Assembly: GCA_051819765.1 (NCBI GenBank)
Contig: JBNJGT010000001.1
Location: forward strand, 42,716-106,715
DNA: 64,000 nucleotides
From: Nanobdellota archaeon
GTDB taxonomy: Archaea > Nanobdellota > Nanobdellia > Woesearchaeales > JACJVW01
Reading direction: 5' to 3'
In this document: piece after piece, positions 2,626 to 63,509 of the stretch
Numbering within the stretch: the first letter of the stretch is position 1
How the letters are laid out: each line of letters begins with the position of its first letter
Made by a program: the position numbers and the translations under genes
The notes under the pieces: model-generated
What the model was told of the DNA's origin: nothing
Seen by the model: only the letters and a program-made list of their open reading frames with translations
The model's database searches: none

Positions 2626-2633
2626 GAATCGGT

Positions 2634-7317: not shown

Positions 7318-7342
7318 AAACACTGTCCTTCCTATAGTGTGA

Positions 7343-8680: not shown

Positions 8681-8683
8681 AAA

Positions 8684-8693
8684 TCTTTAAAAA
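8684..8693 (+). promoter_or_regulatory. TATA box (tctttaaaaa) about 36 to 45 nt upstream of the PCNA ATG; SD-like GGAGAGGGGG follows
   Basis: AT-rich hexamer in the archaeal promoter position. The purine-rich tract lies 5 to 14 nt before the ATG. Confidence 0.45.
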
Positions 8694-8728
8694 GATAGTA
8701 TCTCTCCAAAAGGGAGAGGGGGTTAATC

Positions 8729-25800: not shown

Positions 25801-27797
25801 TCTGATTGGTTGGCTGTGAGGTTTATCATGAGGGTGTTGTTTTGTATCCATGAGGATAGGTTGTGAAAGGAAAGGTTGGTTGAGTAGTTGAGTGTGTCAT
25901 CATCTGGGTCGGTTGCCTGTATTGTGAAGTTGCAGGGGTAATCCTCGCGGCAGGTGACTGATTTGTTGCTTATTTGTGGGTTGTGGTTGCTTGTGATATT
26001 GAATATTGCGATTGTTGAATCATTGAATTCACCATCAGAGACGGTGAGGTTAACCTGTACAAGGCTGACATTGTCAGGGGTGAACTGGACGAGCCCCGTG
26101 GACTGGATGTCGAAGAGGGAGGTGTTGTCCCAGTACATGTGGGTGTCATCGATGTCACGGTCTTCTACATATGAGGAAAGGTCACGGCTGAAGCTCGTGT
26201 TCACCCGTGGGTTGAATGTGGGCAAGGGTTGCCATTGGGGGCGGTTATTGATGTCTATTACTTCAAGGTGGAAGGCCTGGTTGTCTCGTGCTCCTTTTGA
26301 ATCTTCGACAGTCACCTGTACTGTATGATTGCCTGTATGGTTGTCCATCAGTTGCACTTCCAAGCGGGCACTGGCGTTTTCTTTATCATCTATCGGTATG
26401 ACATTGATCCATGAGATGTTTGTTGAGAAGGTGAGGTTGTCTTCAGGGTCAAGGTCTGTTGCGTTGACTATGAGCTGGAACAGGTTGCCTTCAGTATCTG
26501 TCTGGTTGTCTATTGGTGAGAGTACAGGGATATTATTCTTTTTGACTTCTATAGACACATTTGTGCAGGTAGTATTGATTGAATCGCTTGCGCAAATGTT
26601 TACAGTGTGGTTCTTTACTTGTGAGGGAGTCGTATTGATGATGCCGTCGGTCGTATTGAATACACTGCTGTTTGAGGTGAATGTATGAGAGTCATGGGGG
26701 TCATTGTCTGTGAGGTAGTCATTGAGATTTAATGTGAAATAGGCGCCTTGCGCTGTTGTCTGGTTGGGAATGGGAAGGAAAACCGGCGGGTTGTTGACGT
26801 TATTTACAGTTATGGTTATGTTGTTTGAATCAGTGGTGGTGTAACTGTCATTTGCCCTGAACCGTATGGTGACATTACCGAACCAGTAATCCTCAGGATT
26901 GATTGAGACTGTGTGGTTTCCCTCTATCGCTATGGTGACATTCACTTCAGGTATTGCGTTGATTACTGAGTAGGTAAGATTATCCTTGTTTGCCCCTGAG
27001 CAGGTAGTATCCGGGTCATTAAAGTAATCCTCCAATACCAAAAAGTCTTCGAGCTGTTCTCCTTCATTAAGAGTGATGTTTGCGATTGGACCATTGAACT
27101 CGGGCTGGCGGTTGCTATTGTTCACTGTTATATCCCAGGTGTAGGTGTCTGACTCGTTTTGGTCGGTTATGTCCACTTCTACTGTGTGGGTTCCTGCGGT
27201 GCAGTGGCCAAAGCCTATGCTGTATAGTCCAGAGGTTGAATTTGTCTTGTTTACGAGAATGTTATTGTGGTACCAGGTAGTCTCAAGGCTGTCCCCCCAG
27301 GGGATGTCAGGGTCTGATAGGGAATAGTTGTATCTGAATTCCTGGGTTGTACCCTCTGTGATGCTGATTGGGGAAAGGGGAGTTACGCCTTTCAGGGCCG
27401 GCGGGTCGTTTACGTTTTGGATCCTAAAGTAGAGCCGTACGGTCTCATACTCTGATGAGGGTCCTGAATCTTCGGCAATAATGTAAATTGTGTAATTTTG
27501 TGGTCCACTTTCGGTTCCGACATCCTCGTTTGTAGGTGTGAAATTCATGATGGCGCTGGTATCATTGTAGCTTTCCAGTTGGAAGGATGGGAATAGTTCG
27601 CTTGCCAGTGCCCCGGCTTCAGTTGTTTTGAAAGTGATAGGGTAATCCTCATCAGGGTCGATCGCCTTGATAAAATAGGGCGGCGTGGGTTGATCTTCAG
27701 TCAGGATGAACCAGTCGTCATCTGCTACGTTCGTGAATTGAGGGGTTGCCCCATAGGCCAATGTTACCAGTAGCAGTATCAGTAGCAGTCGTTTCAT
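22815..27797 (-). CDS. Giant (1660 aa) surface adhesin-like glycoprotein: signal peptide, many cadherin/Ig-like repeats, C-terminal TM anchor
   Basis: N-terminal MKRLLLILLLVTLAYG. Dozens of NxS/T sequons. Repeated '...FTP..V......NLTVSDG' units. C-terminal IIGIILATLILILIGIVIAANYY followed by a short tail. Confidence 0.7.
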   Translation of the reverse strand: MKRLLLILLLVTLAYGATPQFTNVADDDWFILTEDQPTPPYFIKAIDPDEDYPITFKTTEAGALASELFPSFQLESYNDTSAIMNFTPTNEDVGTESGPQNYTIYIIAEDSGPSSEYETVRLYFRIQNVNDPPALKGVTPLSPISITEGTTQEFRYNYSLSDPDIPWGDSLETTWYHNNILVNKTNSTSGLYSIGFGHCTAGTHTVEVDITDQNESDTYTWDITVNNSNRQPEFNGPIANITLNEGEQLEDFLVLEDYFNDPDTTCSGANKDNLTYSVINAIPEVNVTIAIEGNHTVSINPEDYWFGNVTIRFRANDSYTTTDSNNITITVNNVNNPPVFLPIPNQTTAQGAYFTLNLNDYLTDNDPHDSHTFTSNSSVFNTTDGIINTTPSQVKNHTVNICASDSINTTCTNVSIEVKKNNIPVLSPIDNQTDTEGNLFQLIVNATDLDPEDNLTFSTNISWINVIPIDDKENASARLEVQLMDNHTGNHTVQVTVEDSKGARDNQAFHLEVIDINNRPQWQPLPTFNPRVNTSFSRDLSSYVEDRDIDDTHMYWDNTSLFDIQSTGLVQFTPDNVSLVQVNLTVSDGEFNDSTIAIFNITSNHNPQISNKSVTCREDYPCNFTIQATDPDDDTLNYSTNLSFHNLSSWIQNNTLMINLTANQSEVGVHPFNITVSDPYGGINSSTLVINITDTNDIPYFTLLENKTGGNSLREDHTYEITIKAYDEDADLLALNVSPLLFNISSSIQTEPIGATTIGTFNFTPKQPGNLTLNFSVTDGINTTYKQALYHIINVSKPPEITSFIPPLNHTIQENTTQDFNITIHDPDSDLLFYNWTINNQPIATTQNWSFTPDFCAAGQYNISVNVSDGNLSTGLTWNLTVQNNNIPPILDRPIPNITIKKNQVKEILDLTDYFYQIDACNQSMNFTHSPTTDMTLWFNGSRVTAAPATDFVGNLSVAFVANDSIATTSSNLITIEVENNTPPIIHEVYHGNWTNKTRINLTTAEDTTITFMHNSSDNENDTILTTWIYDNHSHTTKNLTIYFNHSSSGTHTLNLTVSDNVTANHVLWNITVIDVNRPPSFGEVPLGIDGTFYNTSYTDSFRGQGRFISEPKDTLDDTTHLLKPDFRNIKYRVRGNHTSEIIGERTASHTTSSFHNISRTYDDNYLTYWEADSPATLSIAFNTPTFIRNISLSTRQPTTINITYTFNGTSNHLLSSDCNGNQTLTIPPTPMDRMKLDFTGQIQVNELRLHKVSAATLQARTSYNANAWSSWSDPLSNQSLFHDENRTQNMTYHWENRYIQYALTISNATVNEPLLNMRIPDFIMKEEYDISPWIDLDHYFSDKDKDTLNFSIIDIQNSDNLGISINQQNQLSLSPATDWYGIARFRVEAQDPKNASIQSNNITITVLDTYDQPPPESSGGGGGDIRRVIVPFPETENVTQPEFLQLITPQPLIQTDNDSVIIPLTLKNQGNITLNQITLDAQSNEDVTFNFQDKVIATLSPQETLETQVEASWQNAEAVNINISAHSLNPELMDYAFVSITPLEGESLENEVKFVRDLLTSNPECLELNEQIARARDLIEQGKTEQSKELLQKTIDTCRYLISGKEQQIEQPQEMSEWRGYLNRNKVPLTIIGIILATLILILIGIVIAANYYNRREFS

Positions 27798-30322
27798 TTT
27801 AGCTGTTCGAACAGGTCACCTATCTTTTTGAAGTATCTCTTTTTCTTCTCAATGTCAGCCTTCTCATATAATGCTGAGAGTTCTTTGTAAAGTTTTCGCG
27901 CCTCATCGAGATGATCGGTTTTCAGGAGTACCTCGATGTGTTCGGCGAGTGTTTCCATCTCATCCTTATCTTTTGCAGTGAGAGCAAGGGTGAGCTCGTG
28001 GTGGAGGTGATCGATGTGTGATTGGTCAATCTCTTTGCCAGCATATTCTATCTCAGACAACTGCTCAAGAAGCCGTTTGATGTGTGTCTGTTTTTCTGGA
28101 GGGAGATCCTTGATCCTTTCTTCCATCTCTTCGTATGTCAGTTGTTCATCTGTGTCAAGCGCTTCCTGGATATGGTCCTTAAAGGTCTTTGAGACATGAT
28201 CAATACTGGGCTGTTTCTTCTCAGGCACGGGCACTTCCTTTATGATTGTCTTTTTGTGGGATATGATCACTGTTCCGATAAGACCTAGAATCATGATTCC
28301 GATCACTGTTGCGATGAGTATCGCGTATTCCTCAATATTGGCTTTGATGACGACTGCGGGTTCTTCCGTGATGCTGCATTTGGGGCAGGGCCCTCCACAG
28401 TCAACTCCTTCTTCTCCCTGGTTTTGCCTGCCATCATCGCATGTTTCACACGGGTCGCATGGCCCTCCGCAATCAACTCCTTCTTCTTCCTGATTTTGCA
28501 TGCCATCATCGCATGTGGGGCATGGTTCGCATGGTCCTCCGCAATCGATACCTTCTTCACCCTGGTTCTTCACCCGGTCATAGCAGGTATAGCATGGCTT
28601 GCATGGCCCTCCGCAATCAATCTCTGTCTCTGCCTGGTCAAGTCGGCCATTCTGGCAGGCAGGGATGTAGGTGCAGCGACGGAATTCAAGCGGTTTTCCT
28701 TCATCGGTTCCACATTCTGCCAGGTCGTAGCAGATTCTGCTGGAGACATTTGACCTGTTACAGTGGCTCCAGTCGCCGCAGAACCACACCGGCTCACAAT
28801 CACCGGACCCGGTTTGGGGCATTGCTCCTCCACCGCCGCCTGCGCCTTCACCAGAGTCTTCACCATCTGAGCCTTCAGTCTGGCCTTGTTCACCTTCAGC
28901 GACTTCAAGGGTTATCCAGTTGCTGGTATCTCTTGCTCCTGCCTGGTCTTGCACATGGAAGCGCACCTCTTCTGTGCCGATCCAGTCACGGGGTTGGGAG
29001 AAGATTGCTTGTGTGTTCTCTTCATCAATAGTGACATCAATGGCATGGAAGGGTGAGGCGTACTCCACTGAGTATGTGAGTGAATCATCCAGGTCTGGGT
29101 CTTCGGTGTAGTCATCGAGTATGAAACCGGCTCGTATCCTGTTCCTTTGCCAGGTCTGATTCGGGAGGGGTCTTGTGAATAGGGGAGGCCTGTTCCTGTC
29201 GAGTACTAGCACCTGCCATCGGTGGATTGCACTATAATGGCCATCACTGACGTTTGCGGTTATGGTATGATTCCCAGCTGAATAATGATTAGTCTCCCAT
29301 ACATATGTGCTTGAGCGGTCTGTATACTCTGAGTCTGTATATGTGGAGAGAAGGCTCGCGCCATCGTACCAGGTGATTGTAAGGTCTTTATCATCCGTGG
29401 GGTCGGCGTTCTCCAGCTCGAAATCACGGTACCGGATGAAAAAGGTCTGGTTGTCGGTCTCATTCACTGTGATATTTGTCTGAGGGGATGCGATCGTGAT
29501 CTCTGGGGGATGGTTCCTGATGGATACATTCACCTCGCCGGGCTTGATCGTCAGGTGGTTCTGGCATTCGCTTCCATCAGTACCATACCATTGCACTGTA
29601 TAAGGGTTGTTGCGGGTGAATGTGTCATCAGTTGTGAGTGGAAGGGTGAAGTTCACAAAGCCGGTGTCCGGTTCTATGGAAAGCTCTGAGTCAAGGGGTT
29701 CAATTGAATAGACGTTGAAGGTGTAATTTGTGGGGCAGTCTTGGATCTGTCTGGTTACGGTCTTGTTAGGGTAGCGTTCGATTATGATTGTGCGGTTAGA
29801 GTCCTGCACCTGTATTATACTCTGGAAGCGTGAGATGTTTTCAGAGAAATGGAAGGTGAGGTTGGCGTGCAGGAGTTTTTTATCAACGGTTACTGGTGTC
29901 TGTTTTGGCACGTTGGTGTCTAGCACAGTCTGGTTTAGACGAATCTCTCGGAGGTTCGCGCTGGTGTCCCAGGAAGGAGTGATGGTGTTGATGCGTGGAG
30001 TCCGTGCGCAGGTGTTTTCTATGGTGAGGTTGACATCTCTTTCATCCATGGTGGTGTTTATCCGCAGGCAGCTTTCCCTGCAATCGGGATCGATAATGTT
30101 CAGGTCGCATTGGTATGATTCTCCCTGGTAGATCATGCCTGGGCAATCGTGCACTATGAGTGGGGGGTGGTTGTAGCAGAGTGAGACTGTGCCAGTGGAG
30201 ACAGCCTTACCAGTAATCAGATGATCCCTGGTGCTTATGATAGTCCAGTTCAGGGTAATGGATGATATCATAAGCGCGATTGCCAGGGCTGCAATCATGT
30301 TGTTTGATATGCGTACTTTCAT
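27794..30322 (-). CDS. Type-I membrane surface protein (842 aa) with Ig-like ectodomain, four tandem Cys-rich 'DCGGPCxPCxTC' repeats, TM helix and cytoplasmic coiled-coil tail
   Basis: Signal/anchor at the N-terminus. Repeats EIDCGGPCKPCYTC / GIDCGGPCEPCPTC / GVDCGGPCDPCETC / GVDCGGPCPKC. TM YAILIATVIGIMILGLIGTVII. K/E-rich C-terminal tail. 4-nt overlap with the giant gene downstream (operon). Confidence 0.7.
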   Translation of the reverse strand: MKVRISNNMIAALAIALMISSITLNWTIISTRDHLITGKAVSTGTVSLCYNHPPLIVHDCPGMIYQGESYQCDLNIIDPDCRESCLRINTTMDERDVNLTIENTCARTPRINTITPSWDTSANLREIRLNQTVLDTNVPKQTPVTVDKKLLHANLTFHFSENISRFQSIIQVQDSNRTIIIERYPNKTVTRQIQDCPTNYTFNVYSIEPLDSELSIEPDTGFVNFTLPLTTDDTFTRNNPYTVQWYGTDGSECQNHLTIKPGEVNVSIRNHPPEITIASPQTNITVNETDNQTFFIRYRDFELENADPTDDKDLTITWYDGASLLSTYTDSEYTDRSSTYVWETNHYSAGNHTITANVSDGHYSAIHRWQVLVLDRNRPPLFTRPLPNQTWQRNRIRAGFILDDYTEDPDLDDSLTYSVEYASPFHAIDVTIDEENTQAIFSQPRDWIGTEEVRFHVQDQAGARDTSNWITLEVAEGEQGQTEGSDGEDSGEGAGGGGGAMPQTGSGDCEPVWFCGDWSHCNRSNVSSRICYDLAECGTDEGKPLEFRRCTYIPACQNGRLDQAETEIDCGGPCKPCYTCYDRVKNQGEEGIDCGGPCEPCPTCDDGMQNQEEEGVDCGGPCDPCETCDDGRQNQGEEGVDCGGPCPKCSITEEPAVVIKANIEEYAILIATVIGIMILGLIGTVIISHKKTIIKEVPVPEKKQPSIDHVSKTFKDHIQEALDTDEQLTYEEMEERIKDLPPEKQTHIKRLLEQLSEIEYAGKEIDQSHIDHLHHELTLALTAKDKDEMETLAEHIEVLLKTDHLDEARKLYKELSALYEKADIEKKKRYFKKIGDLFEQLK
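28380..28650 (-). repeat. Tandem ~75-bp coding repeats (4 units) encoding the Cys-rich DCGGPC motif
   Basis: + strand shows reiterated 'ggccctccgcaatc(a/g)a(c/t)(t/a)cc...catcatcgcatgt' units. Confidence 0.6.
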
Positions 30323-36563: not shown

Positions 36564-36990
36564 TACGCATAGCAATGAAACTCGTTTTCGTCGGGTCCTT
36601 GAGCTTCTTGCGGAGTGTGACTTGATCATACATTGCGGAGACTGGACTTCCTCTTCCATGGTTGAGTTGTGCCGGGGTCTTCCCGTCCACGGGGTGCGGG
36701 GCAACTGCGACTTTGAGGTTGATGGGCCAATCAAGTTTCATGAGCCCTATCTTGCTATGACACTTGATGGTATCCGGGTCGGGGCATGCCATGGGCATGA
36801 CCTGTGGCTTTCAGAACTCTTATCGGGTGGCTTTGATGTGGTCCTTTCTGGGCATACCCATCGGTCGAAGATAGAGTGGGTGCAAGATACCTTACATATC
36901 AATCCTGGCTCTCCTGCAAAGCCGCGAAATGGAGCAAGCTGTGCATTATGTGATACAGAAAAAAGGGAAGGAAAAATACTTCTTTTATGA
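36541..36990 (+). CDS. Metallophosphoesterase, MJ0936/YfcE family
   Basis: GIVSDTHSN, HCGDW, GVRGNCD, ACHGHD and LSGHTHR metal-ligand motifs. Confidence 0.8.
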   Translation: MLLGIVSDTHSNETRFRRVLELLAECDLIIHCGDWTSSSMVELCRGLPVHGVRGNCDFEVDGPIKFHEPYLAMTLDGIRVGACHGHDLWLSELLSGGFDVVLSGHTHRSKIEWVQDTLHINPGSPAKPRNGASCALCDTEKREGKILLL

Positions 36991-37920
36991 GGCTCCGTGT
37001 TTTACCAGGACTTTTGCGGTCTGTTCCTGCTCGTAGTCGTATGTTGCCTTAATTTTGATCGGTGTCTGGTAATCGCTTTGCGTGCTTACTTCTTGTGTGC
37101 AACTTACCTGGTGGGACCTGTCGTAAAGCCGTACATATCCGCTGGTATCGTCTCCTTCACTGAGGCCTGAGCATTTAAGTCCTGATCCAAGTTCGCTGCT
37201 CACTTCGAGCCAAACCTTATCCTCATCAACTTCGTTTTGTTTTGAGCACTCGGTCTCTTTCTTGAAGATCTCACCTGATCCAACATGTGTCACCTTGAAG
37301 GTGAAGCCTACCTTGTCTTGGGCGCGTGGGTATTCCTTGAAATCTGTAATATGGACTGGGGCTCCTGAGTTATAGACCACTTTTGGTTCATTTACATTAC
37401 ACACTCCTTCCTTTGTTGTGTCCAGGTTGTTTTCTCGTACACAGATATCGGCGATAGCGGTTGTCTGATAAAGGTAACATACATCAGCCCGAATGGGATA
37501 TTCCTTGTTGCCTTCGAGTTTTTCGTGGCGGTTGAGGCCATCAAAGGTGACGTATACCTGTGGTCCTTCAATTACTCCTCCCTCTGCATTCTTTTCAGTC
37601 GTGATGAGGTCTTCTTCAGGATGTTTTTTGAGGTCGGATTCACTGACTGAAAATTCAGATGGTAGGATTCCGCTGAGGGTGACTAGCACATTGTTGCTTT
37701 CAACAGTGTGTTCTCCTTTGTTCTGGAGTATAACTGAGACTTCAAAGGGATTGCTTCCTCCGTCATAGACCTCCTGGGGAGGGCTTCCTTCCGCAAAATT
37801 GACATCAATTCCGTTGACGCCTCCGATGAATGGGTCGCTTTTTGTACCGGTTTGGTTCTCACCGTCGGTGCACCCGGTTATTGCAATCATCAAAAGTAAG
37901 AGCATCAGTACCTTTTTCAT
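36985..37920 (-). CDS. Secreted lipoprotein-like protein, paralog of 37973..38893
   Basis: Start MKKVLMLLLLMIAITGCTDG preceded by GGAGGT. Shares the CYLYQTTAIADICV...CN...SGAP core with its neighbour. Confidence 0.55.
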   Translation of the reverse strand: MKKVLMLLLLMIAITGCTDGENQTGTKSDPFIGGVNGIDVNFAEGSPPQEVYDGGSNPFEVSVILQNKGEHTVESNNVLVTLSGILPSEFSVSESDLKKHPEEDLITTEKNAEGGVIEGPQVYVTFDGLNRHEKLEGNKEYPIRADVCYLYQTTAIADICVRENNLDTTKEGVCNVNEPKVVYNSGAPVHITDFKEYPRAQDKVGFTFKVTHVGSGEIFKKETECSKQNEVDEDKVWLEVSSELGSGLKCSGLSEGDDTSGYVRLYDRSHQVSCTQEVSTQSDYQTPIKIKATYDYEQEQTAKVLVKHGAS

Positions 37921-37972
37921 TATCGTAACCTCCAGGTCTCTCAATGGAATAATCCTTATATAAACTTTTTGA

Positions 37973-38893
37973 TTAGGGAGTGGCAATTATCTTTACTGGA
38001 CGGGATGTTGTGGTCCTGTAGCCGTATTCGAGTTCAATCCTTAGGGGGGTGGTGTATGCGGGTCCACTCAGGCCGGTAACATCGCAGACGAAATAGCCAT
38101 GTCCATCAATCAGTTTCAATTGGCCATCGTCCAGGGGCCTGCAGGTGCCCCGGATATCTGTGCTTGCGATCTCAACTGCATTGACTGTCACGTAATCCAC
38201 ATCTTTGTATTCAAGGCCTTCAGGACTGTAAGGGCTGCAATCTGTAAGATGGGAATACCCTGATTTGAATACTGTGCCTGGCCCTGCGTTATCGACGTGG
38301 ATCTTGAACTTGGTCTTCCCTTTCATAGGCTCCATCTCAATCGCACTTACGGTTATGGGCGCGCCTTGTGAGCCGACAGAAGGGTTGAGTTGGGCGTTGC
38401 ATGCCTTATTCTTTGATGTTGTGGAGTAGGGGTCAGGGTCAATGCAGACGGTTGGTTCAGCTATTGTCTTGTATAGGTAGCAGGCAGTGGCCATGAGGTT
38501 GAATTCGTATTTGTCTCTCTTTTGGGCGTCCAAGCTACGGATAGAACCGTCGAATTCAAGGCTCGTGAATTCTCCCTGGTGATTATACATGCTTTTTCCT
38601 TCAAGGTCCTTAATCGTGTTCCCTTCGCTGACTCCTGTGATTATGTTCTTGTCATAACCGCTCAGGTAGACCTTGCTGTTGGAGCCTGTCTCAATGTCTG
38701 TTGCGCCCCTGTTGTGTACCTTGAGCATCGCAGTGAAGGGTTCATCATCATATATCTTCATTGGGGGCATGTTTGACATGAACTCCAGTGTGAGTCCTTG
38801 CGTGCCTGTGCGGTAATTCTCATCCTGGTTCTGGGATGGTTCAGAACTACAGGCTATCAGAAACAGGATGGAAAGGATAAGGATTTTTTTCAT
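37973..38893 (-). CDS. Secreted lipoprotein-like protein, paralog of 36985..37920
   Basis: MKKILILSILFLIACSSEP signal/lipobox-like. ...ATACYLYKTIAEPTVCIDPDP...CNAQLNPSVGSQGAP... is shared with the paralog. Confidence 0.55.
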   Translation of the reverse strand: MKKILILSILFLIACSSEPSQNQDENYRTGTQGLTLEFMSNMPPMKIYDDEPFTAMLKVHNRGATDIETGSNSKVYLSGYDKNIITGVSEGNTIKDLEGKSMYNHQGEFTSLEFDGSIRSLDAQKRDKYEFNLMATACYLYKTIAEPTVCIDPDPYSTTSKNKACNAQLNPSVGSQGAPITVSAIEMEPMKGKTKFKIHVDNAGPGTVFKSGYSHLTDCSPYSPEGLEYKDVDYVTVNAVEIASTDIRGTCRPLDDGQLKLIDGHGYFVCDVTGLSGPAYTTPLRIELEYGYRTTTSRPVKIIATP

Positions 38894-38931
38894 GAATAAA
38901 ATTTAAGAAAAAGAGTTTAAATATTTTTCGA

Positions 38932-39345
38932 CTAAATCCCAGTGAGTTTGCTCTCAATCATCTGAAGCTCGTTCTCAAGCTTTTCAAGCTCAGAAGGCAT
39001 CGGCTTCTTTTTCTTGGTCTCCTTGGGTTTTTCCTTTTTCTCTTTTTTCTCTTCTTTTGGAGCCTGTTTCTTTGGTTCCTTTTGTGAGAGATGCCTTATC
39101 TTGGTCTCTGGCATGAGTGTATTGAGCTTTCCCAGGAGATGGTTTATCTGCTGCACATCCTGTTTTAATTTGCTGAAGAGTTCCACCTTCTCCTTTCGTC
39201 CCTGCTTGAGTTTCTCATAGTTCTTTAGAGTTACAATGGTTCCTTTTGCAGCACTCAGTACTTCTCTTTGAAGGTCCTTTGGGTCTTCTATCCCAATATA
39301 GTAGATGTGCTTCTCGTTTTTACTCCTATCTTCTGGGGCCATCAT
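38932..39345 (-). CDS. K/E-rich coiled-coil protein of unknown function (start at the internal Met pair to avoid overlap)
   Basis: MMAPEDRSKNEKHIYYIGIEDPKDLQREVL... with the C-terminal KEPKKQAPKEEKKEKKEKPKETKKKKP low-complexity tail. 7-nt gap to the upstream gene. Confidence 0.4.
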   Translation of the reverse strand: MMAPEDRSKNEKHIYYIGIEDPKDLQREVLSAAKGTIVTLKNYEKLKQGRKEKVELFSKLKQDVQQINHLLGKLNTLMPETKIRHLSQKEPKKQAPKEEKKEKKEKPKETKKKKPMPSELEKLENELQMIESKLTGI

Positions 39346-39352
39346 CACCACT

Positions 39353-39586
39353 CTAAAATGCCTCTGGTTCGAAAAGTGTCCGGTCGACAAATTCAATCTT
39401 CCTTTCCACTTCATCCAGTTCGTTTGTCCATGTCTCAATCTCGGTATCTTCCGTGTTCTTCAGTTCGTTGATTCGAGCAAGGGTCGTTTTTGATTCTTTG
39501 ATCTTAGCCTTGACGAGTTCAATCACGTCAAGTACATCCTTGTATTCATCAATCTTTACGAAAACTGGTGCATCTTTTTGAGCCAT
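39353..39586 (-). CDS. Small acidic protein (77 aa), 'KIDEYK' domain family, paralogous to the C-terminus of 39597..40223
   Basis: PVFVKIDEYKDVLDVIELVKAKIKESKTTLARINELKNTEDTEIETWTNELDEVERKIEFVDRTLFEPE. Confidence 0.45.
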   Translation of the reverse strand: MAQKDAPVFVKIDEYKDVLDVIELVKAKIKESKTTLARINELKNTEDTEIETWTNELDEVERKIEFVDRTLFEPEAF

Positions 39587-39596
39587 TTAACATCAC

Positions 39597-40223
39597 CTAT
39601 TGTTTTTCTTCAAAGAAAGTCCTATCAATATAATGGATCTTCCTGTAAACGTCTAAAAGCATCTTTTTCCATTTCTCATACTCTTTGTCTTCCTCAACCT
39701 TAATTTCGTTGAGGCGTTTGAGTATCTCGTCACAGTCCTTCAGTGACCCTTTCATGTGGTCTGATGCTTCCAGTATTGCCTTATAATCCTCAATCTTAGT
39801 GAAAAGCGGTTCGTCGGAAAGCTTAATCTCCTCGCGCTTCTTCTTTACCTCCTGTGCGCCCATCTTCTGGCGGTCAATCGGGTCAATCTGTGACTCCATC
39901 TGAACCTCTTTTTGTGGCTCTGTTGATTGAGCCTCTTGTGGTGGTTCTGGTTGAGAAGTCTCCTGGACAGCCTGCTGTTGATAAGGCGCCTCAGGCTGGG
40001 CCGATTGATTGAATTGCTGGTTAAAATCAAAAGATGGTTGCGCCTGGGTCGACTCTGCTGGTTGCTGTTCCTGTACAGGGTTTTGAAAAAATTGATCCTG
40101 TTGTGGTTCTTGTGGGGGTTGGTCAAGATTGGGAGGCGGTGGAATCTCCATTCCACTGTTCTGAGGTTGTTCCTCTTTTTTTCCGAAAAGTTTACTCATT
40201 AGTCCCATACTGCACCTCTGCAT
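39597..40223 (-). CDS. Protein with a long Q/P-rich intrinsically disordered N-region and a C-terminal 'KIEDYK' domain (paralog of 39353..39586)
   Basis: ...PPPPNLDQPPQEPQQDQFFQNPVQEQQPAESTQAQP... then PLFTKIEDYKAILEASDHMKGSLKDCDEILKRLNEIKVEEDKEYEKWKKMLLDVYRKIHYIDRTFFEEK. Confidence 0.45.
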   Translation of the reverse strand: MQRCSMGLMSKLFGKKEEQPQNSGMEIPPPPNLDQPPQEPQQDQFFQNPVQEQQPAESTQAQPSFDFNQQFNQSAQPEAPYQQQAVQETSQPEPPQEAQSTEPQKEVQMESQIDPIDRQKMGAQEVKKKREEIKLSDEPLFTKIEDYKAILEASDHMKGSLKDCDEILKRLNEIKVEEDKEYEKWKKMLLDVYRKIHYIDRTFFEEKQ

Positions 40224-40581
40224 ATATCTTACTATTTAACTTTTTAATACTTTTCGAGCACTCAAAAATAGCAACACAATCTCCCGTCTGTTTTGTTTTT
40301 GCACTGATAGTGACTCCTTGAGGGTACTCTTAGGGTTTTCTCTCAACCAGTCAGGTTGCGGCCTCACTTTTTTAGATCTCCAGGATGATCCTTACATGCC
40401 GTATTCGGCAAAGTGTTGCTGATATACCTCTGGATGGACTTTGAGATAGGGGTTGGGCTGTAAGCGATTTGATGGGCAAGGGGCTGTTGGCTTCTTTAAA
40501 GCGGGGTGCTTCGGTGATGTATCGGCGATATCTCTTAGTAACATTTTTATATACGATGGGCACAAACATTTTTGAAAAAAG

Positions 40582-41163
40582 ATGGTTACGGCAGGTCGCG
40601 AGCGAGAGGTTTGTTCTCGGGTATTCAAGATTATACTTGAGTATGTCCGGGAAGTAAAGCAGGATGATGGTCTGGTTGCGGACCTTCTTAAACAGGTCTC
40701 CCTTTCCAAAGATGATTATGAAAATGCTAATCATTGGGAGTCCCGGAATCAGCTTGTTGCCCTTTTTGAATGTGTCAAACGCCTTTTCCATGAACCGTCT
40801 CCCTTTTTGACAATCGGGAGGCATTCGGTGGATTTCAAGAAAATTGGGCTTCTCCTGTCAATTGTGCGTCCGATGAGTGGGCCTGAGAAACTTTATCAAC
40901 TGGTGCCTCAGTATGATAAGAAGTTTGTGCGGTATACCACCTTCAAAATCATTCACTCCGGGGATTGTTTTGTAACGTTTCAGCTCTCATTTCAGGAAGG
41001 ATATTCGCTCTTAAAGGAGGATCTAGATCTTATCAGTGGGATGTTGAGTGCAATCCCAACCATATGGGGATTTGAGTTCGCGGAAGTGACGCAGATAGAA
41101 TCTCACTTTGACGAGAGGTGGGCTATTCTCAGATGTGATTGGATTGAACAGCAAAATTTATAA
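40582..41163 (+). CDS. Hypothetical protein (193 aa); possible frameshift with the overlapping ORF 40469..40657
   Basis: Two ORFs in different frames overlap at 40582..40657. Neither has a recognisable motif. Confidence 0.3.
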   Translation: MVTAGREREVCSRVFKIILEYVREVKQDDGLVADLLKQVSLSKDDYENANHWESRNQLVALFECVKRLFHEPSPFLTIGRHSVDFKKIGLLLSIVRPMSGPEKLYQLVPQYDKKFVRYTTFKIIHSGDCFVTFQLSFQEGYSLLKEDLDLISGMLSAIPTIWGFEFAEVTQIESHFDERWAILRCDWIEQQNL

Positions 41164-41188: not shown

Positions 41189-41262
41189 GGCGGCCGTGGT
41201 GTAGCCTGGCAGCACAAAGGACTGTGGATCCTTTAGGGCGAGTTCAAATCTCGCCGGTCGCC
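41189..41262 (+). tRNA. tRNA-His(GUG) with a genomically encoded G-1
   Basis: G-1 pairs with discriminator C73. Acceptor GCGGCCG/CGGTCGC. D-arm GTGT-AGCCTGGCA-GCAC. Anticodon stem AAGGA/TCCTT with loop CTGTGGA. T-arm GCGAG-TTCAAAT-CTCGC. Confidence 0.85.
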
Positions 41263-41264
41263 CT

Positions 41265-41717
41265 TTACGCTAATATCCCTTTTTCTTCAAGGACCTCGAG
41301 CAGTTCGAGCACTTGTTTGTAGTAGGCCATCACAGAATCTATCGTGGCTTGGACTGTCTCATCGTCAAGCTCGAATGTGGTGGTAACGTTACGCCTGTAT
41401 TCGTTGATGCTTGTGTATTCAGAGAGGTTGAGGCGTCTGAGAAACAGATAAAGGTCCATGCCTTCGGTAATGATCCTGCTTTCGGGATACTGCTCTTTTA
41501 TTATCTGTGCTTGCCTAAGTGGTACTTTTGTCTCGTCGATCTCCTCTTTTGCAACCAGGTGGTCTATTACTCCCTGGCTTATGTACTCAAAAGAGCTTAC
41601 CAGCCGATTGATGACGCTTTTGATGACATCGCCTGTCCGGGTATATTTGAGGCTGACATAGATTAGATGATCGACTCGTTTCAGTTCTTCCTTTGCATAG
41701 TATAGGTTCTCATTCAT
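41265..41717 (-). CDS. Hypothetical alpha-helical protein (150 aa), tandem paralog of 41710..42168
   Basis: Shares the 'L..V(D/E)HL.....Y.......L......F..F..' architecture with its upstream neighbour. Confidence 0.4.
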   Translation of the reverse strand: MNENLYYAKEELKRVDHLIYVSLKYTRTGDVIKSVINRLVSSFEYISQGVIDHLVAKEEIDETKVPLRQAQIIKEQYPESRIITEGMDLYLFLRRLNLSEYTSINEYRRNVTTTFELDDETVQATIDSVMAYYKQVLELLEVLEEKGILA

Positions 41718-42168
41718 GTGTTACCCTCCTGATCTCTTTAATGAAGTCCTTTGCTTTATAGAGGTGTTTTTTTATTGTGGCGTCTGTAACGATGTTTAGG
41801 CTGTAGTCATCAGAGCAGATGACCAGGCGGTCTTTCTTGGTGAATTCAACCGCGCTTTTTTGGTGTGCGACCAAAACCTCCCGTAATTCGCGTATGGTAT
41901 TTAAATATTCCTCTAGTTTGTATCGTTTCGCGCTTTCATGGAACATGGTGAGTTTTCCTTCCAAAGTCTCGGGAAACTTAGGGATGCGCTTGTATTTTCG
42001 CTCAAAATACAGAAGGGCTGAAATCGCTTTGGTGAACCCGAGGAATGTGTTTTCAAGGCCTGAAAGAAGGAGCCGGGAATCACCTATCATCTGATAGGTT
42101 CTATTTACCAGATGCTCTGCAACAGTGATGTTTTGAAGGGCCTCTTCAAGTAGCTTATTGGGTTCCAT
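41710..42168 (-). CDS. Hypothetical alpha-helical protein (152 aa), tandem paralog of 41265..41717
   Basis: 8-nt overlap with the downstream paralog and 14-nt overlap with the NAC ORF upstream (operon). Confidence 0.4.
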   Translation of the reverse strand: MEPNKLLEEALQNITVAEHLVNRTYQMIGDSRLLLSGLENTFLGFTKAISALLYFERKYKRIPKFPETLEGKLTMFHESAKRYKLEEYLNTIRELREVLVAHQKSAVEFTKKDRLVICSDDYSLNIVTDATIKKHLYKAKDFIKEIRRVTHE

Positions 42169-42496
42169 TCGTCAGGTCTAGTATGGCTTGGGCAAGGTCC
42201 CCCTCGGTTCTTTTGAGAGCTTCTTGGGCTTGCGCCTTCTCTACCTGAGCCTGTTCCATGACTGTCTGTATATCTTCCTCTGAAATCTCTGTCTCAAGTG
42301 GCCTTTCCAGGGGTTGTCCTACAATCTGGTAGGTCTCCTGGCCCATCATGTTCACCTTGCTGACCTGGGGATTTTGGAACACCAGTTCCTTGTCCGCGGT
42401 CCTAATAATCACTTCTGTTGCTTCTAACTCATTCTGAGAAACGCCCATGCGCTTCATCATCTGATTCATCTTTTTTTGATTCATTCCGGGTATCAT
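42155..42496 (-). CDS. nac: Nascent polypeptide-associated complex protein (archaeal NAC alpha) with UBA domain
   Basis: MIPGMNQKKMNQMMKRMG...EVIIRTADKELVFQNPQVSKVNMMGQETYQIVG...ISEEDIQTVMEQAQ...ALKRTEGDLAQAILDL. Start chosen at the Met giving the canonical N-terminus (track ORF 42155..42511). Confidence 0.85.
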   Translation of the reverse strand: MIPGMNQKKMNQMMKRMGVSQNELEATEVIIRTADKELVFQNPQVSKVNMMGQETYQIVGQPLERPLETEISEEDIQTVMEQAQVEKAQAQEALKRTEGDLAQAILDLTNGTQ

Positions 42497-42672
42497 CCTA
42501 ATCCCAACCAACTGTTTCCGAAGGTGTGCAGCGCAGCAAGTATGATCATGACAAGCAGGCAGAGCACGATCACGTGCCCTGGAGAAAGCTCAATCTTGCT
42601 TTTATAATCGTCAAAATATCTGGTGATACCTGCTGTGCTCGAGGGCATGTTTACTTTGTTGTTTTTTGCCAT
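42493..42672 (-). CDS. Preprotein translocase subunit Sec61-beta (SecG-type, archaeal), 59 aa
   Basis: MAKNNKVNMPSSTAGITRYFDDYKSKIELSPGHVIVLCLLVMIILAAL matches the Sec61-beta 'SSAGLxRYxDE..KIxLxP' motif plus a C-terminal TM. The longer track ORF (to 42825) is rejected because it overlaps the RNase P RNA. Confidence 0.7.
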   Translation of the reverse strand: MAKNNKVNMPSSTAGITRYFDDYKSKIELSPGHVIVLCLLVMIILAALHTFGNSWLGLG

Positions 42673-42679
42673 TTTGATC

Positions 42680-42990
42680 AAATGTGGTAAGGTAGCAGTA
42701 AGCCGCCTTCTGTCAGGCCCAAACATCTTCTTGGGGATGCGATGGCCTGTCTTAGCATTTAACTGAGCGCATACTGCTTGCACAAGCCAAGGGTGGCTTT
42801 TCACCTGTTCCTCATACGATGTCAACGGGTTAACTCCCAGGCCGTTGCCGGCTGGTTCACCGCATCATCCCTATATGAGGGAGTGTTTTTTCTGAGCCAT
42901 TGCCATCCTTCTCAGGATCTCCTCAGAGTGGCATTTCCTGTGGGCGGACTTTCCTCACGGGTGCGATAGCTAAGTTGCTACCTTACCTTG
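42680..42990 (-). ncRNA. rnpB: RNase P RNA (archaeal type-A-like), about 310 nt
   Basis: Minus strand contains CR-I GAGGAAAGUCCGCCCACAG and CR-V ACAGAAGGCGGCUUA, with covarying P4 pairing (GCC/GGC in place of the E. coli GGG/CCC). P1 is formed by 5' GGUAAGGUAGCA (42976..42987 region) and 3' UGCUACCUUACC (42686..42698). It includes the J11/12-like CAGGUGAAAAGCCACC. Confidence 0.8.
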
Positions 42991-43012: not shown

Positions 43013-44116
43013 TTAAGCTTTTTGTATGATGACTGCGAAAAACTCTTCTTGGCCCTGGTTTATAGGAATCTCTTCAATAATGGAGAATTGGTCATTCTGG
43101 AGAAGGTCATCAGGAGTCCTGGTCAGCAGTACAGCCTTTCCCTGTTGGTTGAGCACGTATTTAAGCTGGTGGAAAAACTCGGTGTAGATCTTCTGGATGT
43201 CTCTTGGGTTCTTGTGGCGTGACAGTTGTGGCGGGGCGGTCACCACGCAATCGACTTCCTTTTCCTTGTGCTTTGTATCAAGCCAGGAGATGTCTATGCG
43301 GGAGAACCTGAGTGCTTTATGGATCCCGGCAATCTTTGCGTTCTTGTTTGCGGCTTTAACATTCTTTAGCATGCTGTCATAGCCGATGATTGTGGCTTCC
43401 GGTTCCTTTTTCGTGTCCAATCCTGTAAACCAGGCATCAGGATCTTGTGTGAATTGGGGAAAATATTGGAATGCCAGCTGATCCTTGTTGAAGAAATGGG
43501 GTGAGAGGCCTCGTGCACGGAGGGCTGCCTCAATCGGTATGATGCCACTTCTTGAGAAGGGGTCGATAAGAGTCTGGTTACTGGTGAACCCAGCAAGCCG
43601 GGTAAGGGCATAGGCTATCGTGCCTTTGAGGCTCAGGCGGGTGGTGAAGAGCATGAAGCTGCGTTTGCTCAAATCAATCCCTGCAAGGTCGATGCCTATG
43701 ATGCAGGTATCATCCTGGATATGGATCTGGACTGTGTAGGTGGGGTGATCAAGGTCTACGGGTGCCTTGTATTGCTGCTTGACCTTTGCACCAATGCGTT
43801 CTTCCACATCTTTGCTGGAAAAAGGATGATCTCCATGCCTGTCACAGCGTGCGGCAAAAGGTGTCTGTTCAGTGATCCAGTCTGTCGTGAGGCAGGCTTT
43901 TTCGAGGTGCTCCAGGGTCTGGAATCTGAAGCTGTCAAGGACATAGAGGATCTTATGGATTGACTGGGCCTGATAGGTTACCCTGCAGGCAGATTCAAAA
44001 TCAGTCTCAAAGAATACTGCTGTCTCTGAGAGTTTGCCCTCAACTCCGATGAGCTCTTCTATCTCCTCTTTTGTTACTCTTTCGATCCCTTTGCTCGTGA
44101 TGGCTGCGAATCTCAT
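43013..44116 (-). CDS. THUMP-domain SAM-dependent N2-guanine tRNA methyltransferase (Trm11/TrmG10-like)
   Basis: N-terminal THUMP-like region. MTase motif I DPFSRSGIIPIEAAL. Motif IV variant VVTAPPQ (degenerate D/NPPY). 367 aa. 4-nt overlap with gyrA. Confidence 0.65.
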   Translation of the reverse strand: MRFAAITSKGIERVTKEEIEELIGVEGKLSETAVFFETDFESACRVTYQAQSIHKILYVLDSFRFQTLEHLEKACLTTDWITEQTPFAARCDRHGDHPFSSKDVEERIGAKVKQQYKAPVDLDHPTYTVQIHIQDDTCIIGIDLAGIDLSKRSFMLFTTRLSLKGTIAYALTRLAGFTSNQTLIDPFSRSGIIPIEAALRARGLSPHFFNKDQLAFQYFPQFTQDPDAWFTGLDTKKEPEATIIGYDSMLKNVKAANKNAKIAGIHKALRFSRIDISWLDTKHKEKEVDCVVTAPPQLSRHKNPRDIQKIYTEFFHQLKYVLNQQGKAVLLTRTPDDLLQNDQFSIIEEIPINQGQEEFFAVIIQKA

Positions 44117-46533
44117 TTTGCAACCTTCGCTGTTGTCGCTATGCGGTCTTCAGGGTTTAGTCTCATCAGGCGTACCCCTTGGGTGTTCCTCCCTATGACT
44201 GAGATATGTTCCATTGAAGTCCGGATGGCTTGTCCCTGTTGGCTGATCAGTACAATGCTGTCGTCTTGGGTGACTGAGGTGATGCTTACCACTTTCCCGG
44301 TCTTTGCAGTGATAAGCATGTTCCTGACACCTGAGCCTCCTCGTTTTATCAGGCGGTATTCGGCAAGCTCGGTGCGTTTTCCATACCCTTTCTCTGTGAC
44401 AGTGAGGATTGTTTTTGTTTCATCTGCTATGATCATGCCGACCACTTCATCCTTTATCAATCGGATTGCGCTCACTCCACGGGCTGTCCGTCCAACAGGG
44501 CGTACGTCGGTTTCCTTGAATCGCACTGCTTTTCCATTGCGGGTCGCAATCACCACTTCCTGTTCTCCGTCGGTGATTTTTGCGCTAATGAGTTCGTCAC
44601 CCTCCTCCAGGTTGATTGCGATGATGCCTGTACGGCGTGGTCGGGAGAATAGTCCTGCATCCACCTTCTTGATAATCCCTTTGCGGGTGCACATGAGGAC
44701 ATATTTATCCTCGAATGAACTGATGGGGAGAATGGCATTCACCCGTTCATCTTTTGCAAGGTTAACCAAATTGACGATCGCAGTCCCCTTTGACTGGCGG
44801 TTGGCAAGGGGGAGGCGGTATACCTTGAGCCAAAAGAGATTACCTTTATTGGTGAAAAAGAGAAGGTAGTCATGGGTGTTTGCCATGAATATGTCCTCAA
44901 CAAAGTCCTCTTCTTTCTTCCCTGTTGCGATCACGCCTTTGCCCCCCCGTTTCTGTTCACGGTAGGTGTCGGTCTGAAGCCTTTTGATATATCCGTGATG
45001 CGTGATGCTGACCATCATATCTTCCTTTTCTATGAGGTCTTCTATGTCTGGATTGTAATTGTCAACAACGTCCATTATCTCTGTCCGTCGGTCGTCCCCG
45101 TACTTTTTCTTCATCTCCTGGGTCTCTTCCTTGACGATTGTGTAAATCTTTTGTTCATCAGCCAGGATCGCTTCCAACTCTTCAATCAGTCTGATCGTCT
45201 CGTCATAGTCTGTCTGGATCTTCTGGCGCTCCATGGACGAGAGCTTTTGCAGGCGCATCTCAAGTATGACTTTTGCCTGTTTGTCAGATAGCTCGTAATC
45301 CTGCATCAGGATTTCTGCGGCTTCTTTCGGGTCACGGGATTTCTTGATCTTATCAATGATCTCATCAATATGCTTTAGCGCGATGAGGAGCCCTTCGAGG
45401 ATGTGGGCTTTTTCTTTTGCCTTCCTGAGGTTGAATTCCGTGCGTTTTGTGACCACAACTTTGCGGTGCTGAATAAAGTTATGGATGAGCTCCTTAAGGT
45501 TGAGGGTCTTTGGTTCGTTGTCCACAAGGGCCAGCATGTTGATTGCGAAGCTGTCCTGAAGCCGGGTATGCTTGTAGAGTTGGTTAAGAATCACGTCCTC
45601 GTTTGCGCCGCTCTTTATCTCAAGGACTATGCGCATGCCTGTGCGGTCTGATTCATCACGAATGTCGGTAATGCCCTCAATCTTTTTTTCCTTTACAAGA
45701 TGGGCGATATTCTCCAGAAGTTGCGCCTTGTTGACCTGGAAAGGTATTTCGGTTATGACAATCTGCTGGGCGCCTTTCTTACGATCTTCCATGTGGTGCC
45801 TGCATCGGACAATTGCTCTACCACGGCCGCTCATGTAAGCTGCTCTCACACCGCTTGTTCCTTGGAGGATGCCGCCAGTGGGAAAGTCCGGAGCCTTCAC
45901 ATGTTCCATAAGTCTTTCTATGGTGATTTCAGGGTCGTCAATCATTGCCTCAATGGCATCTGACACCTCTTTGAGATTGTGTGGCGGCATGTTGGTCGCC
46001 ATGCCTACTGCAATACCTGCTGTGCCATTGACCAGCAATTGCGGTATCTTGGCTGGAAGCACGCTCGGTTCTTTGGCGCTGTTGTCAAAATTGTCCATGA
46101 AGGCAACAGTCTCTTTGTCGATATCCTCGAGCATCTCTTCTGCAAGCGGGGCCATGCGTGCTTCAGTGTAACGCATTGCTGCGGCATTGTCCCCATCGAT
46201 GCTTCCAAAATTACCTTGGCCGTCAACCAAGATGTAGCGAAGAGAGAACGGTTGTGTCATCCGTACCAGGGTATCATAGATTGATGCATCCCCGTGGGGG
46301 TGAAACTTTGCCATACAGTTACCAACCACGTTTGCGGATTTACGGTATGGTTTGTTGGAAAGCACCCCTGTGGTGTGCATTGTGTAGAGAACACGTCGAT
46401 GAACAGGTTTCAGGCCGTCCCTTACATCAGGAAGGGCCCGCCCTACGATGACACTCATTGCGTAGTCCATGTAGGACTGTTTCATTTCCTCTTCAATCTC
46501 TTGTGAGATAATCCTGTCACTTTGTTCTTCCAT
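44113..46533 (-). CDS. gyrA: DNA gyrase subunit A
   Basis: 806 aa. Active-site region ...RYTEARM..., N-terminal [30 protein letters not shown], and C-terminal beta-pinwheel repeats. Confidence 0.95.
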
Positions 46534-56763: not shown

Positions 56764-56809
56764 CAGGTACTGGCACGTTTTCTCCCTTTAAATATTTTTC
56801 TTAAATAGG

Positions 56810-63400: not shown

Positions 63401-63509
63401 ACCCTCTATCACAAAAGAGATTGAGGAATCTTATGAGGGCATGAAGCACCAGTTCTCCAGTGCTCAAGGCAAAGAAATGCGACAACAGAGGCCAGCATAT
63501 TTCGGTTAG
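60474..63509 (+). CDS. Cdc48/VCP-like AAA+ ATPase (N domain plus D1 plus D2) with a ~270-aa coiled-coil insertion in the D1 helical subdomain
   Basis: N-domain ...[19 protein letters not shown].... D1 Walker [16 protein letters not shown] and D2 Walker [19 protein letters not shown] motifs. 1011 aa versus about 740 typical. The insertion lies between HTRNMPL and [12 protein letters not shown] and is rich in E/K/R heptads. Confidence 0.9.

Follow-up and report, generated by a model that had tools for sequence, protein, structure and literature searches.

Within a stretch of 64,000 nucleotides (nt) from a Nanobdellota archaeon (contig JBNJGT010000001.1 of assembly GCA_051819765.1, hereafter the window), five co-directional genes of the minus strand, named here g1, g2, g3, C2 and C3, follow one another at distances that suggest an operon. 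The comparison with related genomes favours a different reading, with a probability somewhat better than even, in which two independent and lineage-specific modules have been juxtaposed by a rearrangement in a small clade, the g1-g2-g3 triad being a membrane-tethered scaffold, and C2 and C3 being surface proteins. An earlier note on this DNA had taken the five genes for a single operon and an unrecognised envelope-associated module. The families are indeed unnamed and C2 and C3 are predicted surface lipoproteins, but the idea of a single five-gene machine did not survive the comparison, given that the complete order is found in only three of the 80 species loci, in one further locus (L006) and in the window itself, and that elements resembling archaeal promoters stand before both C2 and C3.

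All positions given here follow the numbering of the whole 64-kb window, and the gene starts have been corrected where the mechanical list of open reading frames (ORFs) over-extends. The first gene, g1 (39597-40208, 203 amino acids (aa)), is listed mechanically as 39597-40223, and its true start is likely to be at 40208 (MGLMSKLF...), where a Shine-Dalgarno-like GAGGTG precedes the start codon and where the MG(F/L) start is kept in the relatives. It is followed by g2 (39353-39586, 77 aa), by g3 (38932-39345, 137 aa from the first ATG, the TTG-extended ORF to 39438 being an artefact), by C2 (37973-38893, 306 aa), and by C3 (36985-37920, 311 aa, with the TTG-extended ORF to 37986 again an artefact), all on the minus strand. 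The intergenic gaps, from g1 to C3, are 10, 7, 38 and 52 nt, within the 7 to 52 nt described earlier. The first two proteins are acidic (isoelectric point (pI) 4.7 for g1 and 4.5 for g2), and g3 is basic (pI 9.6). As each of the five has many conserved homologues, the genes are real, and their nearest relatives are labelled Woesearchaeota. As the earlier note had also said, no family can be named for any of them, since scans against Pfam, NCBIfam, PADLOC and PHROGs gave no significant match, and the best matches in the latter two collections, which cover anti-phage defence and phage-derived genes, are insignificant (E>=0.017). Both modules are lineage-specific sequence families without described relatives.

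The distribution of the triad was examined in one genome per GTDB species, which provided 80 loci, the ORFs of which were searched with hidden Markov models. Genes similar to g1, g2 and g3 occur in this order, on the same strand and with small gaps or overlaps, in 78 of these loci, and the two exceptions are loci cut by contig ends; g3 lies directly downstream of g2 in 79 of the 80. Essentially all the species sampled in the order carry the triad, and three distant genomes show g2 between g1-like and g3-like genes, with no lipoproteins beside them. Genes of the C family, to which C2 and C3 belong, follow the triad in only three of the 80 loci (L011, L012 and L013), and none is found within 6 kb of the triad in the other 75 that could be tested. 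The neighbourhood thus gives a divided answer, in that the triad is conserved and the C2-C3 pair is conserved, but the synteny of all five genes is lost outside a narrow clade, which removes the basis for a single machine.

The usual surroundings of the triad comprise, on one side, GyrA, ScpB, a winged-helix protein and a divergently oriented LTD/CARDB-like surface protein, and, on the other, a PHP-domain protein, RNase J (41 of the 80 loci) and PCNA (26 of the 80). In the window, GyrA is still near, at 44113-46533, and RNase J and PCNA lie some 30 kb away, at 7343-9475, a displacement that is consistent with a rearrangement that placed a detached C2-C3 pair behind the triad. The LTD protein is not found at the equivalent position in the window. 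Where it does occur (for example, in L023 at 2581-4293, minus strand), it is a secreted protein of approximately 400-570 aa that carries an LTD domain and a region weakly similar to CARDB, and that is anchored in the membrane at its C-terminus.

The C2 and C3 genes have a separate context of their own in distant Woesearchaeota, where the order is Pelota, then A - B - C1 - C2 - C3, followed by RFC and a PRC-barrel protein. In this cluster, A has about 390 aa and one N-terminal membrane helix, and B is a polytopic protein of 500-1200 aa with a large C-terminal ectodomain; examples are found in L001 (2228-7959), L002 (2227-7932) and L102-L147. By tblastn, the C2 and C3 of the window are the orthologues of genes four and five of this cluster, and the C3 of the window is matched by the third paralogue at E=1.5e-65 for L001 and at E=6.7e-71 for L002. 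The same searches find no A, B or C1 within the 64-kb window. A scan of metagenomes added 58 C-family loci, in which the arrangement A-B-C-C-C recurs wherever there is sufficient upstream sequence. The full A-B-C1-C2-C3 cluster is present in at least 23 loci, about six more show B-C-C-C cut by contig ends, and the triad is adjacent to C2 in none of the loci of either kind.

Neither A, B nor C1 has a Pfam match, and profile searches of PDB sequences found no relatives of A, B or the C family. In hhalign comparisons, the ectodomain of B and the second domain of the C proteins align colinearly and share the same Y.Y end, although the match (E=0.015, probability 3%) is suggestive rather than significant, and the comparison of A with the C family gave nothing. 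In its N-terminal sequence (such as KRAQ-AGTLIGIIALLLIFYILFLPP), A is similar to archaeal signal peptides of class III (pilin type). A complex of A, B, C1, C2 and C3 might, among other possibilities, be a lattice on the cell surface, a structure for attachment or something akin to a pilus.

Further indications of a division come from the sequences between the genes. Upstream of g1, an element that resembles the archaeal transcription factor B recognition element (BRE) and TATA box, CGAAAAGTATTAAAA (40242-40256, minus strand), is kept in L011 and L012, and it is nearly identical to a second one, CGAAAAATATTTAAA (38916-38930, minus strand), which occupies the 38-nt gap between g3 and C2. This second element has the form CGAAAA-N-TATTTAAA, in agreement with the archaeal BRE/TATA consensus, lies 22 nt upstream of the ATG of C2 and has a run of five T after it. 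It is found, identical and at the same place, in L011, L012 and L006, with a variant in L013, and in L006 the gap between g3 and C2 measures 264 nt. A third element, CAAAAAG TTTATATAA (37956-37971, minus strand), precedes C3, with GGAGGT after it as a Shine-Dalgarno sequence; the element is kept in L011 and L012, and L013 carries the variant TTTTAAATA. The gaps of 10 and 7 nt that precede g2 and g3 contain only Shine-Dalgarno-like sequences.

A degenerate version of this signature, [CGA][GC]AAA-N1-4-TWTWWAWA, has 14 matches in the window, 11 of which are located 18-42 nt upstream of the start of an ORF (further examples of the signature, from the scan of the window, are at 56787-56801 and 7305-7320), which is how a genuine promoter signal would behave. 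Judging by the spacing of these elements from the start codons, many genes of the window may have leaderless transcripts or transcripts with very short leaders. The elements upstream of g1, C2 and C3 are, then, putative promoters, which suggest that the transcript of C2 is leaderless and separate from that of g1-g3, and that three transcription units, g1-g2-g3, C2 and C3, would be the most economical reading.

It is against this background that the explanation of the five genes as one operon and one envelope machine has to be weighed, in which the acidic cytoplasmic proteins would serve the targeting or anchoring of C2 and C3 or their coupling across the membrane. Besides the common direction of the genes and the gaps of no more than 52 nt, this explanation can draw on the conservation of the five-gene order in the window, in L005/L011 (which are on the same contig), in L012, in L013 and in L006, as well as on the secreted LTD/CARDB-like protein that adjoins the triad in 61 of the 80 species. 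The latter gene, however, is divergent and stands within a plainly unrelated housekeeping block, so that its adjacency looks like inherited synteny, and the explanation is opposed by the 75 loci in which no C-family gene accompanies the triad, by the 23 or more in which C2 and C3 follow A-B-C1 with no triad adjacent to them, and by the conserved consensus promoter elements right before C2 and C3, together with the 264-nt gap of L006. Given this, a single machine is considered quite unlikely.

Turning to the triad proteins themselves, the C-terminus of g1 and the whole of g2 share a paralogous domain of approximately 70 aa (43% identity over 69 aa, E=9e-19), as the earlier note had proposed. 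At E<=1e-3, a search of 1.84 billion proteins with the profile of this domain matches 3287 cluster representatives, and the best 150 of these matches present only two architectures, in which the domain of about 75 aa either stands alone or lies C-terminally in a protein whose length is roughly 100-300 aa. In the window, g1 is composed of an N-terminal basic amphipathic helix, MGLMSKLFGKK (40176-40208, minus strand), a disordered linker rich in Gln, Pro and Glu (residues 13-125, that is, 113 residues, at about 39834-40172, minus strand), and the g2-like coiled-coil domain, assigned by its paralogy with g2 (39600-39815, minus strand).

Most of the 78 g1 orthologues begin with MG(F/L)xxF(L)K(K/R), and their N-termini are basic and amphipathic (for example, MGFLKFLKR, MGIFDFLKK and MGLFGRKK). 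A motif (L/M)(D/E)(L/I/V)PPxP is found by regular expression in 61 of the 78, some 10-25 residues beyond this N-terminal segment, and the g1 of the window carries it as (M/L)(D/E)(I/L)PPxP. In the window, the linker contains 26% Gln, 16% Pro and 12% Glu, which agrees with the Gln/Pro-rich region of the earlier description. The Gln-richness is specific to the lineage of the window, however, given that the linker of the family as a whole is of variable length and rich in Pro (19%) and Glu (14%) before it enters the g2-like domain. The longest hydrophobic run of g1 has at most five residues, which leaves it with no transmembrane segment, and no membrane-spanning hydrophobic run was found in g2 or g3 either.

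The most conserved member of the triad is g2, the orthologues of which are 50-65% identical across the Woesearchaeota. In an alignment of 53 sequences, Y14, E45 and W52 are invariant, and the ends of the protein are nearly so, in the pattern APVFVKIDEYKDVLD ... INELKNxEDxEL..W ... IDxxLFEPE. The AlphaFold2 model of g2 consists of one unbroken helix, from residue 11 to residue 71, with a mean predicted local distance difference test score (pLDDT) of 89, which reaches about 98 in the core. A possible ribbon-helix-helix or other DNA-binding reading of the 'PVFVKID + helix' arrangement was considered and rejected, in view of the pI of 4.5, the one continuous predicted helix and the absence of a ribbon-helix-helix match in Pfam.

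The third protein, g3, opens with a domain of heptad repeats, continues through a linker rich in Lys and ends in an amphipathic helix that is conserved (SELEKLENELQMIESKL), and the poly-K/E tail attributed to it earlier corresponds to a stretch with 41% Lys and 21% Glu. The search for homologues with g3 itself returned only g3 and one close relative, and the orthologues were gathered from the triad loci. In these, the N-terminal domain shows the heptads 'FFV.I.DP.E.RR.ILES.K.IV..LQR.EKFK' and closes in LP.T.LR, the Lys-rich linker is very variable in length, and the C-terminal helix, TELEKLESEL..IE.KL..L, is almost invariant. The possibility that g3 is a third paralogue of g1 and g2 was rejected, as hhalign assigns it a probability of 2-3% and aligns only the N-terminal 'FFV.I' strand.

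When averaged over the columns of the alignments, the hydrophobic period is 3.5 residues for columns 10-75 of g2 and for columns 8-80 of g3, and the best period of the C-terminal helix of g3 is 3.4. The power at 3.5 exceeds the median by a factor of about 9 to 23. A heptad period of 3.5 residues marks coiled coils, whereas that of an isolated amphipathic helix is 3.6. By this periodicity and by the AlphaFold2 helix of g2, the triad proteins are coiled coils. Scans of the individual members of the families against Pfam (53 homologues of g2 and 49 of g3) gave only scattered and insignificant matches to unrelated families, many of them of coiled-coil proteins (NPV_P10, MtrG, Laminin_II, DUF7785 and SKA1), with V-SNARE_C and the syntaxin N-domain matched in six members each, and all of these matches were treated as noise. 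Similarly, sequence-profile searches of the PDB with g2 and g3 produced nothing meaningful, only insignificant matches to unrelated proteins that are mostly coiled-coil or helical.

A mechanism may be proposed in which the three proteins, all of them cytoplasmic, form a hetero-oligomeric coiled-coil bundle at the inner face of the membrane. In this arrangement, g1 would anchor the bundle through its short basic amphipathic N-terminal helix and would contribute, beyond a long and flexible Pro/Gln/Glu spacer, one strand of the coiled coil; g2 would provide the paralogous strand, about 9 nm long; and g3 would add more helices of the heptad type, together with its Lys-rich linker and a conserved C-terminal helix that might dock on the bundle or on another partner. 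The most likely role of such an assembly would be that of a membrane-associated scaffold or adaptor in cell division, in the shaping of the membrane or in the organisation of the cell interior, and the mixed housekeeping neighbourhood of the triad does not decide among division, membrane shaping and nucleoid attachment.

The last of these roles corresponds to an explanation in which the triad is an adaptor of the nucleoid or chromosome, with the Lys-rich linker of g3 on the DNA and g1 at the membrane, in a logic like that of ZapB-MatP or RacA-DivIVA. The basic character of g3 (pI 9.6) and its stretch with 41% Lys would suit such a function, and the neighbourhood does hold GyrA, ScpB, a winged-helix protein and PCNA. 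The same block, on the other hand, also holds RNase J, a Trm5-type methyltransferase and the surface protein. The linker, moreover, varies in both length and sequence, to the point of being nearly absent in some orthologues (L037, L015 and L044, for example), and the family scans found no DNA-binding domain in g1, g2 or g3, all of which leaves this explanation with a slim chance.

One other explanation holds the triad to be a divergent or split membrane-remodelling system of the ESCRT-III/PspA type, where the 'MGLF...' helix would be alpha-0, the long helices would stand for the hairpin, and the C-terminal helix of g3 would be a MIM-like motif for an AAA ATPase. It was prompted by the N-termini of g1 (MGLFGRKKNKELPP and MGFLKFLKR, for example), which are similar to the alpha-0 helices found in ESCRT-III, PspA and Vipp1, and by the conserved amphipathic helix that follows the charged linker at the C-terminus of g3. 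Neither Snf7 nor PspA_IM30 is matched by the window proteins, however, and these families are not among the recurrent weak Pfam matches of the 53 g2 and 49 g3 members, nor do the PDB profile searches return an entry for ESCRT-III, PspA or Vipp1 at E<=10. As the triad proteins are also far shorter than the ESCRT-III subunits, which have a helical-hairpin core of about 200 aa, and as no MIT-domain ATPase is linked to the triad, this explanation is regarded as very improbable, and a coiled-coil scaffold tethered to the membrane remains the preferred reading of g1, g2 and g3.

The C2 and C3 proteins are duplicates (27% identity over about 295 aa, E=4e-17), and their description as paralogous lipoproteins with a common Cys framework has held up well. 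Both begin with a K-rich n-region and a hydrophobic core, which make up a signal peptide that closes in a lipobox, LIAC in C2 (Cys15) and ITGC in C3 (Cys17), and six further Cys are found at equivalent positions in the two proteins. The lipobox Cys is invariant in 69 homologues (consensus LxGC), the rest of the Cys framework is invariant or nearly so, and the same is true of motifs such as ATACY.Y.T.A...VCIDPDPYS and QGAP. The Pfam model LPAM_1 gives a weak match on C3 (E=0.11). Homologues of C2 at E<=1e-3 number 211, all of which are unannotated, and the family is 40-50% identical across the order.

The AlphaFold2 model of C2, based on an alignment of 69 sequences (pLDDT 94.4, predicted template modelling score 0.86), consists of the signal helix and two beta-sandwich domains. 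Foldseek comparisons with the PDB return the thigh and calf domains of integrins, transglutaminase barrels, C-terminal domains of AglB and Gram-positive adhesins. The template modelling scores of these matches are only about 0.2, with single domains superposing, which corresponds to a generic match of tandem Ig-like domains; in the viral-protein library BFVD, the best match is a DUF11 protein. An identification of C2 with the fusexins or HAP2 was rejected as a generic likeness of Ig domains, and C2 does not show the three-domain class II fold with fusion loops and a transmembrane anchor at the C-terminus. These features lead to the conclusion that C2 and C3 are disulfide-stabilised Ig-like surface proteins, predicted to be anchored by lipid.

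In the mechanism proposed here, each of them would be an extracellular protein with two such beta-sandwich domains, and the pair would represent the distal part of an ancestral envelope cluster of A, B, C1, C2 and C3, the products of which most likely form a conserved cell-surface complex, so that in most relatives C2 and C3 would work alongside A, B and C1. The window also encodes, at 3444-4931 on the plus strand, a protein with the architecture of a bacterial-type extracytoplasmic chaperone (a SurA-like N-domain, a PPIC rotamase domain and a weak thioredoxin-like region). To judge from its domains, it could help C2, C3 and other surface proteins rich in Cys to fold.

Rather than structural parts of the envelope, C2 and C3 might be adhesins with which an episymbiotic DPANN cell attaches to its host. 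The DPANN archaea are generally episymbionts, the tandem Ig-like domains of C2 resemble bacterial adhesins and the leg domains of integrins, and the window encodes a lytic transglycosylase with peptidoglycan-binding domains as well as a Big_9/PKD protein of 1660 aa. An identity of 40-50% across the order, with an invariant Cys framework, is unusually high for an adhesin, however, and is more in line with a core component of the envelope; a fixed five-gene cluster that includes two membrane proteins is likewise more suggestive of a core complex of the envelope than of a rapidly evolving determinant of host range. A role as host adhesins is, for these reasons, unlikely for C2 and C3.

Several observations weigh against the reading of two independent modules, or against the roles proposed for them, and they have to be set beside the evidence above. 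The five-gene order has lasted across relatives in which, where reported, C2 is 61-76% identical to that of the window, that is, down to about 61% identity, and the BRE/TATA motifs are compatible with co-transcription by read-through. Both this persistence and the recurrence of the divergent gene for the LTD/CARDB-like surface protein beside the triad leave room for a triad that is functionally coupled to the envelope. The hydrophobic moment of the N-terminus of g1 in the window is modest (0.27, compared with 0.32-0.52 in the orthologues), and the charged surface residues of g2 are strongly conserved (as in NELKNxEDxE..W), which is unusual for a purely structural coiled coil and hints at a specific partner. 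In addition, the Ig-like fold of C2 is generic and indicates no specific function.

A more far-reaching reading gathers some of these observations into a single proposal, in which the triad would be a membrane-tethered coiled-coil apparatus of the cytoskeleton or of division, extending throughout the Nanobdellota with no homologues in bacteria or other archaea, and coupled across the membrane to the envelope or to the surface that contacts the host. This reading derives from the recurrent position of the triad beside genes for surface proteins, which are mostly LTD proteins, and C2 and C3 in the present case, and it is thought to be improbable. The more modest reading, of an independent scaffold and an independent pair of surface lipoproteins, is nonetheless of interest in its own right, considering that the Woesearchaeota and their relatives among the DPANN archaea, abundant as they are, have not been brought into culture, and that almost nothing is known of their division, of the make-up of their envelope or of their contact with hosts. 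What had appeared to be an operon was misleading, and it can be resolved into two sharply defined modules of dark matter, one of which, the triad, has more than 3000 representatives of its domain clusters with no Pfam model, and is plausibly a lineage-specific membrane scaffold. Both the triad and the A-B-C1-C2-C3 cluster offer compact and highly conserved targets for structural and localisation work.

The remainder of the window contains a number of other features. At 18698-20992 (plus strand), a 764-aa protein combines two PG_binding_1 domains with an SLT lytic transglycosylase domain, and the presence of a protein predicted to bind and cleave murein in an archaeon that lacks peptidoglycan of its own suggests an interaction with bacteria, or predation on them. 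The 1660-aa surface protein with Big_9, PKD and cadherin-like domains lies in the region 22815-30322 (minus strand), its translation being coupled to that of an 842-aa ORF upstream, which has no match in Pfam, and the strongest GC skew of the window (0.345, at 24-26 kb) falls within this Big_9/PKD region. At the far end, at 60474-63509 (plus strand), an unusually long double-AAA ATPase of the CDC48 type (1011 aa) has AAA domains that start at residue 247 and around residue 770, and the gap of some 400 residues between these domains suggests a large insertion.

Closer to the five genes, a 193-aa protein with no Pfam match (40582-41163, plus strand) is divergent from g1 and has a tRNA-His gene (41190-41263) just downstream. 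Two adjacent 150-aa proteins with no Pfam match follow at 41265-42168 (minus strand), downstream of NAC and syntenic in L005 and L006; the idea that they are paralogues of each other was rejected when they were compared. The archaeal RNase P RNA (42687-42986, 114 bits), which lies 2.5 kb from the five genes, overlaps the 5' part of a mechanical ORF at 42493-42825 (minus strand), and this ORF is an artefact, since the relatives carry at this place a Sec61-beta of only 57-59 aa. Finally, Rfam indicates a tRNA over 123 nt at 5229-5351 (plus strand), which presumably contains an intron and for which there is no ARAGORN call.

In comparison with known systems, both modules belong to known kinds, namely, membrane-tethered coiled-coil scaffolds and Ig-like surface lipoproteins, and, on present evidence, they are better described as two conserved but uncharacterised families than as a mechanism shown to be new. 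Lineage-specific modules of hypothetical proteins, often membrane-bound or secreted, are known in archaeal phyla (PMC9258230), and while the main text of that study was found to contain no mention of the triad, of the C families or of their gene order, the triad and C2/C3 share the general characteristics of such modules, that is, conservation within one lineage, a lack of Pfam or KEGG annotation, and an enrichment in signal peptides and in association with membranes.

In the case of C2 and C3, the K-rich n-region, the hydrophobic core and the L-x-[GA]-C motif with its invariant Cys are those of lipobox lipoproteins, which are of bacterial type and have also been reported in haloarchaea, and the lipidation of the two proteins is predicted from this likeness in sequence. 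The beta-sandwiches of the C2 model superpose, as single domains only, on domains of the CARDB, DUF11 and macroglobulin types. The C family differs from these in having its own invariant framework of six Cys together with a lipobox, and neither C2 nor C3 has a CARDB or DUF11 match in Pfam at E<=1.

The known systems closest to the triad are tethers and small scaffold proteins of cell division. With its 77 or so residues, predicted to form essentially one long coiled-coil helix, and with partner coiled-coil proteins encoded beside it, g2 recalls ZapB, DivIVA and GpsB, and ZapB, with 81 aa, is a similar single coiled-coil helix. No homology to these families was detected, however, g2 being confined to the Nanobdellota, and these families have nothing that corresponds to its conserved terminal motifs, PVFVKIDEYKDVLD and IDxxLFEPE. 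The architecture of g1, on the other hand, with a probable N-terminal membrane-binding element, a long flexible linker and a C-terminal interaction domain, is like that of ZipA and SepF, the Pro/Gln-rich linker being shared with ZipA and the use of an N-terminal amphipathic helix with SepF. There is no similarity in sequence, and the C-terminal domain of g1 is predicted to be a heptad-repeat helix rather than the alpha/beta core of SepF or the FtsZ-binding fold of ZipA; nor do g1, g2 or g3 have a SepF match in Pfam or show an alpha/beta core of this kind. Archaeal SepF, moreover, systematically co-occurs with FtsZ (PMC8178401), so that no replacement for the FtsZ anchor would be needed. The triad is, then, most likely analogous, rather than homologous, to tethers of the ZipA, SepF or ZapB type, to judge by the arrangement of its parts.

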